Part shown: piece by piece, positions 53,462-55,247 of the stretch | How the letters are laid out: each line of letters begins with the position of its first letter | How positions within the stretch are numbered: the first letter of the stretch is position 1 | Assembly (NCBI GenBank): GCA_937863565.1 | Contig: CALMGJ010000014.1 | Span: 23,817-87,816, forward strand | Direction: 5' to 3' | Source: an uncultured bacterium | GTDB taxonomy: Bacteria; AUK180 | Length of the DNA: 64,000 nt | Notes under the pieces: generated by a model | What the model saw: only the letters and a program-made list of their open reading frames with translations | Told to the model about the DNA's origin: nothing | Database searches by the model: none | Program-made: the position numbers and the translations under genes

Positions 53462-53488
53462 AAAGGTACCTGGTCTTTACATTTTACG
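53462..53488. repeat. Left arm of a 27-bp inverted repeat (AAAGGTACCTGGTCTTTACATTTTACG)
   Basis: The reverse complement of 55221-55247 is identical except for one position (C/T). It starts 2 nt after the stop of the 52564 gene. Confidence 0.9.
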
Positions 53489-53575
53489 AAAAGATATCAG
53501 GCATCGGCATTTCCGTTTATACAAATGTTCCGGAGGACTTATTTTTCGGAATTCCGGGTCATTCAAAAAAAAAAC

Positions 53576-53603
53576 TTGACACAGAATTTTAAAGTGGTAT
53601 AAT
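53576..53603 (+). promoter_or_regulatory. Strong sigma70-like promoter candidate TTGACA-16-TATAAT, giving a ~200-240-nt leader for the DEAD-box helicase
   Basis: Both hexamers match the consensus perfectly; read directly. Confidence 0.55.
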
Positions 53604-53807
53604 CTAACGGTCTTATAAAGATCTCTGCTCTTTTCGTACGGATACATTTTTCGCATGAGAACATCTGCATGTCAGAAATAATGAATAAGTATATAGTTCA
53701 GGGTACGATAATCACCCTGAGTTCCGGGTAGTCATATAGTTCATATTACATCAAAGAAATATCGAAATATCTTGAAGATCCGGGGCTGGATCGGCTTATA
53801 GAGCAAA

Positions 53808-55148
53808 ATGAAGGCCGGTCGGGGTTCAGGAGGCCCCAATCTTATGCAAAAAGCACAGAATTATCAAAATGACATCGAAGGATTCGATGTGTTCGGTTTG
53901 GATCCCGTTATTATGAAAGGGATCATGCACGCGCGTTACGATACGCCTACGCCGGTTCAGAAAGAGGTCATTCCTCTTGCAATGAAAGGTGCCGATCTGA
54001 TAGGCACGGCGCAGACAGGAACGGGCAAGACGGCAGCTTTCGTTCTGCCGATATTGAATCGCCTTATTAAAGAAGAAAAACATTTGATAAGAGCGTTAAT
54101 AGTCACTCCCACAAGGGAGCTTGCGGCTCAGATCGATGACAATATAAGAACGCTCGGCAGAGGAACGGGCATTCGAAGCGTAACCCTTTACGGTGGGGTG
54201 AGCGATCTGCCTCAGATAACCGCCCTGGAACAGGGGGTGGATATCGTAGTGGCATGTCCGGGAAGGTTCATAGACCTTGTTTATAAAGGTTATGTCAATA
54301 CGGACAATGTTGGAATACTCGTACTCGATGAAGCGGACAGGATGCTTGATATGGGATTCCTTCCCGATATCAAGAGAATACTGCAATTCCTTCCCGAGAA
54401 CAGGCAATCCATGCTTTTCTCGGCCACATTCCCGCCTGAGATCGAGGCTTTGGCAAGAAGATCGCTCAGAGATCCTAAAAGGGTCGCCATAGGCCTCAGC
54501 AAACCGGCGAACACTGTTGCCCACGCACTCTTTCCGGTGGAACAGCATCTCAAGTGGAAGCTTCTTCTCGAGATCCTCAAAACAACGGATACCGATTCCG
54601 TGCTTGTTTTCACGAGAACCAAATTCCGCGCCGATTCGGTCATGAAGAAGATCAAGCATGCAGGTTACAAGGTGACGAGCCTGCACAGCAATCGTTCACA
54701 GGCTCAGAGACAAGCTTCCTTGAAAGGGTTTAAAAGCGGCGCATACCAGATCATGGTCGCTACCGACATAGCCGCAAGAGGGCTAGATATTGACGATATA
54801 TCCCATGTGATCAATTATGACATGCCGGCCACGCCGGACGATTATATCCACCGAATAGGAAGAACGGGGAGAGCGGAAAGAACGGGGGATGCTTTCACGC
54901 TTATGACATCAGAGGATGACCAGATAGTGAAAAGACTCGAGAAGATCATGATGACGAAAATCGAACGCAGATATCTCGAGAATTTCGACTATAATGCCTC
55001 AAAACCTGAAAATACGGGGACTAATGCCTCTGCAGGCAAACACTTCAATCCCAATGCCGGGAAGAAAGACAGAAGACCGGTCAAGAGCACGGGGAATTCA
55101 CGGCGCGGCAGCAGACCCCGTTATTCGGGATTGAATCCTACGGGATAA
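53808..55148 (+). CDS. rhlE: DEAD-box ATP-dependent RNA helicase (RhlE-like) with a basic C-terminal tail
   Basis: Q motif (TPTPVQ), AQTGTGKT, PTRELA, DEAD, SAT, and the HRIGRTGR motif. The alternative start ATG 53844 lies 10 nt after AGGAGG. Confidence 0.9.
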   Translation: MKAGRGSGGPNLMQKAQNYQNDIEGFDVFGLDPVIMKGIMHARYDTPTPVQKEVIPLAMKGADLIGTAQTGTGKTAAFVLPILNRLIKEEKHLIRALIVTPTRELAAQIDDNIRTLGRGTGIRSVTLYGGVSDLPQITALEQGVDIVVACPGRFIDLVYKGYVNTDNVGILVLDEADRMLDMGFLPDIKRILQFLPENRQSMLFSATFPPEIEALARRSLRDPKRVAIGLSKPANTVAHALFPVEQHLKWKLLLEILKTTDTDSVLVFTRTKFRADSVMKKIKHAGYKVTSLHSNRSQAQRQASLKGFKSGAYQIMVATDIAARGLDIDDISHVINYDMPATPDDYIHRIGRTGRAERTGDAFTLMTSEDDQIVKRLEKIMMTKIERRYLENFDYNASKPENTGTNASAGKHFNPNAGKKDRRPVKSTGNSRRGSRPRYSGLNPTG

Positions 55149-55220
55149 TATAGAAAAACATAGCCCGGATCCGGTCACAGCTATTGATTCACCAATATAC
55201 AAGGAATTGATCAGTTAGTC

Positions 55221-55247
55221 CGTAAAATATAAAGACCAGGTACCTTT
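55221..55247. repeat. Right arm of the 27-bp inverted repeat
   Basis: CGTAAAATATAAAGACCAGGTACCTTT, 41 nt upstream of the next start codon. Confidence 0.9.

Follow-up and report, generated by a model that had tools for sequence, protein, structure and literature searches.

An inverted repeat of 27 nt, perfect but for one position, brackets a DEAD-box RNA helicase gene in an uncultured bacterium of the GTDB lineage AUK180, and it raises the question of whether the repeat defines a mobile or otherwise functional cassette around that gene. The bracketed segment spans 1786 bp (positions 53462-55247) of the 64,000-nt window, which is the whole stretch of DNA analyzed here (contig CALMGJ010000014.1; C14:23817-87816). 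The genome is 2.27 Mb long, in 38 contigs, with 47% GC; positions given without a contig refer to the window. A sequence-only reading had proposed a non-autonomous mobile cassette that captured the helicase, an invertible segment, an RNase III processing stem, or two opposite copies of a genome-wide repeat. The last of these was supported. The 27-mer very probably belongs to a TIRtron as its terminal inverted repeat (TIR); TIRtrons are elements that carry a tyrosine transposase gene of the TIRYT family. As a fuller statement, which we consider reasonably likely, the two arms are TIRYT-family repeats that were placed separately at a rearrangement-prone junction and form no functional cassette boundary. 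The arms are located as follows.

53462-53488, + strand: left arm, a forward (F) copy of repeat family A, AAAGGTACCTGGTCTTTACATTTTACG (repeat search of the window and genome)
55221-55247, - strand: right arm, a reverse (R) copy of repeat family A (repeat search of the window and genome)

The two 27-nt arms are complementary at 26 of 27 positions, as had been reported, and are separated by 1732 nt; the single mismatch is a T for C at motif position 19 of the right arm. With up to three mismatches allowed, the 64-kb window contains just these two matching sites, and none of 100 dinucleotide-preserving shuffles produced a match to the arms, in agreement with the earlier judgment that a chance origin is unlikely. 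The position of the arms at gene borders was also confirmed. The upstream open reading frame (ORF), a DUF4424-like gene at 52564-53460, is separated from the left arm by one base, and the right arm lies 72 nt past the helicase stop codon and 41 nt ahead of a transglutaminase-like ORF that starts at 55289.

A fuzzy search and an nhmmer profile identified exactly 11 copies of the family-A 27-mer in the genome (28.6-39.7 bits), and the next-best nhmmer match scored 11 bits. This dispersal largely refutes a special tie of the repeat to the helicase, although the accompanying expectation of a REP- or terminator-like repeat did not hold. The sequences flanking the 11 copies are unrelated from copy to copy; therefore, the unit is the ~27-mer itself, and a longer miniature inverted-repeat transposable element (MITE) behind it is ruled out. 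The whole 27 nt are conserved, including any putative “spacer,” and comprise the head AAGGTACC, which contains GGTACC, and a half holding a tandem TTTAC duplication (TTTAC..TTTAC). As single-stranded DNA, neither strand of the 27-mer folds (minimum free energy of -0.1 and 0 kcal/mol; z-scores of +0.9 and +1.0), and shuffled 27-mers fold better than the real one. Because of this lack of folding, it is neither a repetitive extragenic palindromic (REP) hairpin nor a terminator. Readings as a sigma-54 promoter, an extracytoplasmic function (ECF) promoter, or a dif-like dyad were dropped on inspection, as the motif has no -12 box GC, keeps even its putative spacer conserved, and shows no dyad symmetry.

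The repeat is linked to a transposase gene on contig C13. A gene encoding a 314-aa Y1/HUH protein (C13:15557-16501) is bracketed there by family-A copies at C13:15542-15568 (+) and 16523-16549 (-), and these inverted copies match over 32 nt. In Pfam, the protein reaches 26.2 bits for the Y1_Tnp profile, above the cut-off of 23; among NCBIfam models, it is matched best by the REP-associated tyrosine transposase (RAYT; E value, 9e-14), at a score under the REP_Tyr_transpos equivalog cut-off (51.5 against 80 bits). A weak Sigma70_r4_2 match was also found in Pfam. The HUH motif is NHYH, and residues N59, H60, H62, Y119, and N123 are invariant across 13 homologues. A single-sequence search of the PDB with this protein gave no match, and a family profile was needed: the N-terminal part of the 13-homologue profile matches the Escherichia coli TnpA-REP structure 4ER8 (E value, 4e-6), and positions 170-320 match DnaA domain IV structures (E value, 8e-10). 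The sequence-only reading had seen no recombinase gene near the helicase, and a scan of four flanking genes (50.9-56.9 kb of the window) likewise found none; the cognate gene sits on another contig, which accounts for its absence here.

The association between repeat and transposase gene was also observed in relatives, the closest genomes compared being those of another genus. Among 61 genomes, the motif was detected in this genome and in three of the sister genus g2 (14, 5, and 20 copies), with 0 of the 57 others containing it; a control search with the reversed pattern gave 0 matches. All three orthologues of the Y1 gene (G006:C14, G006:C168, and G001:C145; 45-46% identity) are bracketed by inverted motif copies, and the motif variant, TGG...CTTTTTAC or GGG...CATCTTAC, tracks the gene copy among them. 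The neighbors of this TIRtron differ in each of the three genomes. Among more distant homologues of 25-46% identity, 17 of the 19 whose loci held both flanks have flanking inverted repeats of their own, 16-33 nt in length. They share an architecture in which a 5-6-mer, duplicated in tandem, comes after a G-rich head (for example, GGGGTCAGGTCTTGACATTTGACA; here, GGTACCTGGTCTTTACATTTTAC), and heads starting with GGGGTCA or GGGGTCT were found in seven distant homologues. These results show the repeat family, tie it to the transposase gene in three genomes, and define the domain make-up of the protein; the placement statistics given below are likewise direct results.

The F arm of the C13 TIRtron (C13:16490-16556, -) supplies a -35-like TTTACT, which is followed by a 17-nt spacer and a TATAAT ending 5 nt ahead of the transposase ATG. 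This arrangement suggests that the transposase promoter lies partly within the repeat and that the mRNA is leaderless or near-leaderless.

RAYT-like genes with flanking long TIRs instead of REPs were described as TIRYTs, forming TIRtrons, by Di Nocera, De Gregorio and Rocco (2013, PMC3733652). That account reports “moderately abundant TIR families” occurring as singles, dimers, and groups, gives the head motif GGGGWSAS for some TIRs and not for all, and proposes biochemistry on TIRYT as future work. TnpA-Y1 subclass 2.1 was characterized by Quentin et al. (2018, PMC6006769) as lacking REP hairpins and having an NH[YF]H motif and Bac_DnaA_C/helix-turn-helix (HTH) tails, and about 12 flanking 16-mers per replicon are given for Group 1 RAYTs (Bertels et al., 2017, PMC5581495). 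The present system resembles TIRtrons in its Y1/HUH core with the NHYH motif and a DnaA-C-like HTH tail of the subgroup 2.1.2 type. The non-hairpin inverted repeats that bracket the gene, and also its three orthologues in G001 and G006, are a further likeness. So are the scattering of the repeats, which stand alone, in pairs, or in groups and number ~10 per genome, and the presence of several co-resident systems, each with its own repeat. The tyrosine motif differs, being Y-x3-N-A here and Y-x3-N-P in the published description. The arms are a further example of the class already named in 2013 and not a new element type.

Two other known systems were compared. Like the REP/REPIN-RAYT systems (REPtrons; TnpA-REP, 4ER8), the present one has a single-copy Y1 gene between inverted copies of a short repeat, a homologous catalytic core, and repeats scattered in extragenic space, often just past genes. 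However, a REP is a hairpin headed by GTAG and is present in hundreds of copies, whereas the 27-mer does not fold, has no GTAG, and occurs in 11 copies. The IS200/IS605 elements (IS608 and ISDra2) share the HUH/Y1 chemistry and insert in a strand-defined manner 3' of a short target, and family-A forward copies here track positive GC skew and gene direction. Their ends are nevertheless subterminal hairpins instead of inverted repeats, and their transposases lack the HTH tail.

Two further TIRtrons were found in the genome, at C29:77335-78271 and C30:61591-62536, with Y1 genes of 283 and 287 aa. Each has its own inverted repeat, dispersed in 12 copies for family B (head GAGGGACG) and nine copies for family C (head AGGGACG). 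One family-B copy lies in the window.

21224-21249, - strand: family-B copy GGGGGACGTTGGTTGAAAAAGGTGAA, one mismatch to the consensus (cognate gene C29:77361-78245)

Copies of different families share spacers at C10:139336/139396, C29:6614/6716, and C10:121543/121726. A gene-less unit of 196 bp bounded by inverted family-C repeats was found at two loci (C11:203073-203268 and C25:2084-2279); the two units are ~80% identical, and their homology stops at the repeats. Judged by its structure, this unit derives from a TIRtron in the manner of a MITE or REPIN, and its presence at two loci indicates that repeat-bounded units without a transposase gene can be copied.

The placement of the copies was analyzed with crude longest-ORF gene calls, on which all placement statistics rest. 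Seven of the 11 family-A copies start -2 to +9 nt from a same-strand upstream stop codon, compared to 0.36 expected from random intergenic placement (P < 5e-5), and TAA, TAG, or TGA is often fused to the repeat head. Stop abutment was observed for 12 of 32 copies when the three families were pooled and for about 8 of 19 copies in relatives. The eight forward copies all lie on whichever strand has positive local GC skew; the three in reverse orientation lie on the opposite one. Three to four pairs of copies occupy neighboring spacers, against 0.05 expected. A single gene stands between two copies in four cases: inverted pairs enclose the TIRYT gene and the helicase, and direct pairs enclose genes of 226 and 132 aa. 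The latter two are ORFans that are absent from the six other genomes of the family. Relatives contain tight inverted doublets, 71-116 nt apart, and a gene-repeat-gene-repeat array at G006:C7. The genes flanking the repeat copies have no common functional theme.

Repeats of families B and C also lie 1-2 nt past the stop codons that close three modules, GmrSD/HARE-HTH, AbiEi/AbiEii, and CAAX-protease, in a defense/accessory island at C12:136219-143450, a further gene-repeat-gene-repeat array. The island contains GmrSD_N with a HARE-HTH/RAMA partner, a Cas4-like PD-(D/E)XK nuclease, a CAAX protease, and DUF805; the AbiEi/AbiEii pair is putative, with a Pfam match for AbiEii only.

A mechanism that would account for these features can be proposed. 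A TIRtron consists of one TIRYT gene, encoding an N-terminal Y1/HUH single-strand DNA nuclease/transposase core and a C-terminal DnaA-domain-IV-like HTH, between inverted non-hairpin repeats. The TIRYT acting in trans presumably scatters extra TIR copies, 11 in all here. The HTH tail would read the tandem TTTAC..TTTAC half, a clade-specific duplicated pentamer, and the HUH/Tyr center would nick single-stranded DNA near the conserved GGTACC head. On one strand, a short A-rich target resembling a stop codon would receive the insertion at its 3' side, in the orientation of the upstream gene. In this reading, the left arm is the usual kind of forward copy, abutting the stop codon of the DUF4424-like gene, and the right arm is a reverse copy in the next spacer. 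We infer in this scheme the mover of the repeats, their mode of movement, and the independent arrival of the arms.

Whether the helicase and the arms belong together depends on the structure of the segment, which contains or adjoins the following features.

53489-53565, no strand: ~80 nt of non-conserved sequence from the left arm to the helicase promoter (alignment with G001, G004, and G006)
53576-53603, + strand: sigma-70 promoter, TTGACA, 16-nt spacer, TATAAT, with a TG extension (12/12 consensus match; conserved in three relatives)
53604-53844, + strand: predicted 5' leader of the helicase mRNA (conservation and predicted structure)
53845-55148, + strand: coding sequence of the DEAD-box RNA helicase, RhlE/CshA-like (family profiles and orthologue alignment)
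55245-55273, + strand: promoter-like site, TTTACA, 17-nt spacer, TAAAAT (10/12 consensus match)

The earlier description of a promoter, a long leader, and the helicase coding sequence inside the 1786 bp was confirmed, except that the helicase start moves from 53808 to 53845. Alignment with three orthologues places the start at ATG 53845, just after an AGGAGG box (protein MQKAQNYQ...); the longest-ORF start at 53808 is probably wrong, as conservation and the AGGAGG box favor 53845. The helicase is single-copy in the genome, and its orthologues in the sister genus g2 are 70-71% identical. The promoter and the ~235-nt leader are strongly conserved in G001, G004, and G006, and homology with these genomes begins only at the -35 box, near 53565. 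The spacer past the helicase stop codon is likewise not conserved in orthologous loci. The helicase is native to this bacterial family and is served by a promoter and leader of its own. A foreign origin of the segment is ruled out by its ordinary GC content and skew and by the 70%-identical sister-genus orthologues; a search of genome and metagenome collections with the helicase returned only generic DEAD-box relatives of no more than 63% identity.

Across four genomes of two genera, conservation of the leader nearly equals that of the coding sequence. Several hairpins are predicted in it, one of which covers the Shine-Dalgarno sequence (GGGGTTCAGGAGGCCCC), and the alignment of four sequences contains only two covarying pairs. 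No Rfam family matched anywhere in the region, including the leader. The leader is probably structured, and the stretch 53604-53850 may be an unnamed cis-regulatory leader of the cold-shock type.

Several findings argue that the two arms were placed separately. Over 27 nt, each arm exactly matches a solo copy at another site in the genome but differs from its partner: the left-arm 27-mer equals C20:2453-2479, and the right-arm 27-mer equals C9:140980-141006. The left arm holds the stop-abutting position typical of solo copies, and ~80 nt of non-conserved DNA part it from the conserved helicase unit. Additionally, a target-site duplication was looked for just outside the arms, as the sequence-only reading had suggested, and none was found (left flank ...GCTTCTTAAA, right flank ACATTAATTC..., no shared direct repeat). 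The segment contains no transposase relic (best tblastn E value, 0.15) and no compositional anomaly, and the helicase exists in one copy.

The gene order around the segment was compared across relatives, as had also been suggested. The neighbors of the helicase, the transglutaminase-like gene, and proS all differ in every related genus, and an empty-site comparison of both sides in six related genomes found gene order scrambled everywhere. Upstream of the transglutaminase-like gene, G001 has six additional genes and G006 a gene plus a repeat doublet, and G004 has nothing additional; on this comparison of loci, the spot can be described as a variable junction. The G006 helicase orthologue (locus L081, G006:C2, 6561-6583) has a degenerate forward copy 12 nt past its stop codon, with four mismatches in 23 nt, which is a second helicase-repeat association in a different orientation.

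Certain observations nevertheless weigh against separately placed arms or against their assignment to TIRtrons. The layout of the helicase segment, from upstream stop codon through F copy, gene, and R copy to the next gene, matches that of the C13 transposase gene itself, with the F arm abutting the upstream stop in both. The number of adjacent-spacer pairs is far above random, and the gene-less family-C unit has been copied. The helicase neighborhood differs in every related genus, which means that relocation happened at some point. The published GGGGWSAS is not matched by the family-A head AAGGTACC, and the mechanism assumed for TIRYT is drawn by analogy with IS200/IS605 and TnpA-REP.

In the alternative that survives best, the F arm, helicase, and R arm are or were a non-autonomous unit moved whole by the TIRYT in trans, as a bacterial counterpart of a cargo-carrying miniature element. 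This corresponds to the captured-helicase cassette first proposed, and we consider it unlikely, though worth weighing. The TIRtron-like layout, the 196-bp unit at two loci, the inverted doublets in relatives, the change of TIRtron neighbors among three genomes and of helicase neighbors per genus, and the ORFan nature of the other repeat-bracketed genes are all in its favor. However, the helicase is single-copy without a target duplication, the closest kin of the arms are other solo copies and not each other, and the conserved helicase unit does not reach the left arm, ending ~80 nt away from it. Because gene order is scrambled throughout the family, relocation requires no special mechanism.

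A broader version of mobility, which we regard as improbable, is that TIRYT end-repeats are cassette boundaries at which the Y1/HUH enzyme inserts or exchanges genes or small modules. Each module would end in one repeat fused to a stop codon, and the helicase segment would be a captured module. The four repeat-bracketed single genes, two of them lineage ORFans, are compatible with this idea, as are the G006:C7 arrays, the module ends of the C12 island, the significant stop abutment, and the copied gene-less unit. The Acinetobacter pdif modules and integron cassettes offer an analogy only: they too are single genes or small modules bounded by sites of ~27-28 nt, arranged in gene-site-gene-site arrays with accessory or defense gene content. 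They depend, however, on the tyrosine recombinases XerC/D and IntI and on dyad-symmetric sites or folded attC, neither of which was found here.

The repeats could alternatively serve as operator sites, with a domesticated TIRYT binding the 27-mers and affecting expression or termination at gene ends, including those of the helicase and the transglutaminase-like gene. The promoter-like site at 55245-55273 faces the latter gene, 16 nt upstream of its start, and its -35 box is made of TTT from the outer end of the right arm and the flanking ACA. Judged by the consensus match, the right-arm repeat may contribute to the promoter of this gene. A regulatory role would also fit the conserved DnaA-like HTH tail, the tandem TTTAC duplication and its equivalents in other clades, and the precise placement at stop codons. 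On the other hand, the HUH and Tyr residues do not vary within the family, an argument that nuclease activity has been kept; the flanking genes share no functional theme, and the copies differ among related genomes. We therefore hold this explanation to be very unlikely.

Less probable still is an RNA duplex, in which the arms would pair in read-through transcripts and RNase III would cut the 27-bp stem, freeing the helicase mRNA. The arms are complementary enough for such a stem, and neither spacer around the helicase has a terminator-like hairpin. However, the perfect promoter of the helicase lies downstream of the left arm, inside the bracketed segment, and is conserved in relatives that have no arms, so the main transcript would not include the left arm; moreover, the motif is mostly present as solo copies. 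The earlier proposals of a processing stem and of an invertible segment found no support. Least probable of all is an invertible segment in which recombination between the arms flips the helicase as a switch: the repeats are inverted and 27 bp long, but with an internal promoter and near-identical arms a flip would leave both helicase expression and the junction sequences unchanged, no recombinase is among the four flanking genes scanned, and the motif lacks the dyad symmetry or fold typical of recombinase core sites.

With the arms read as separately placed members of a dispersed TIR family, the locus carries a lesson for annotation, namely that two members of such a family may be all there is to a conspicuous inverted repeat around a gene. 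The abutment of stop codons, the position at the ends of accessory and defense modules, and the presence of a conserved host gene in transposase geometry may go beyond the TIRtron accounts cited above. TIRtrons are widespread and, to our knowledge, have never been studied at the bench; they raise the question of how an HUH single-strand nuclease handles inverted non-hairpin ends. This small genome is a compact test bed for such work: its three co-resident systems have ~10 repeat copies apiece, the catalytic residues are intact, and a miniature derivative has been copied. It also reveals rules of repeat placement: the repeats abut stop codons, are co-oriented with the upstream gene, and lie at the ends of accessory modules. 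If the cassette-boundary idea were true, these systems would be a single-strand-nuclease counterpart of integron cassettes and pdif modules, building accessory and defense islands. The helicase pair demonstrates that a conserved housekeeping-type gene can reach the exact geometry of a transposase gene, and it is a natural substrate for asking whether TIRYT repeats mobilize host genes.

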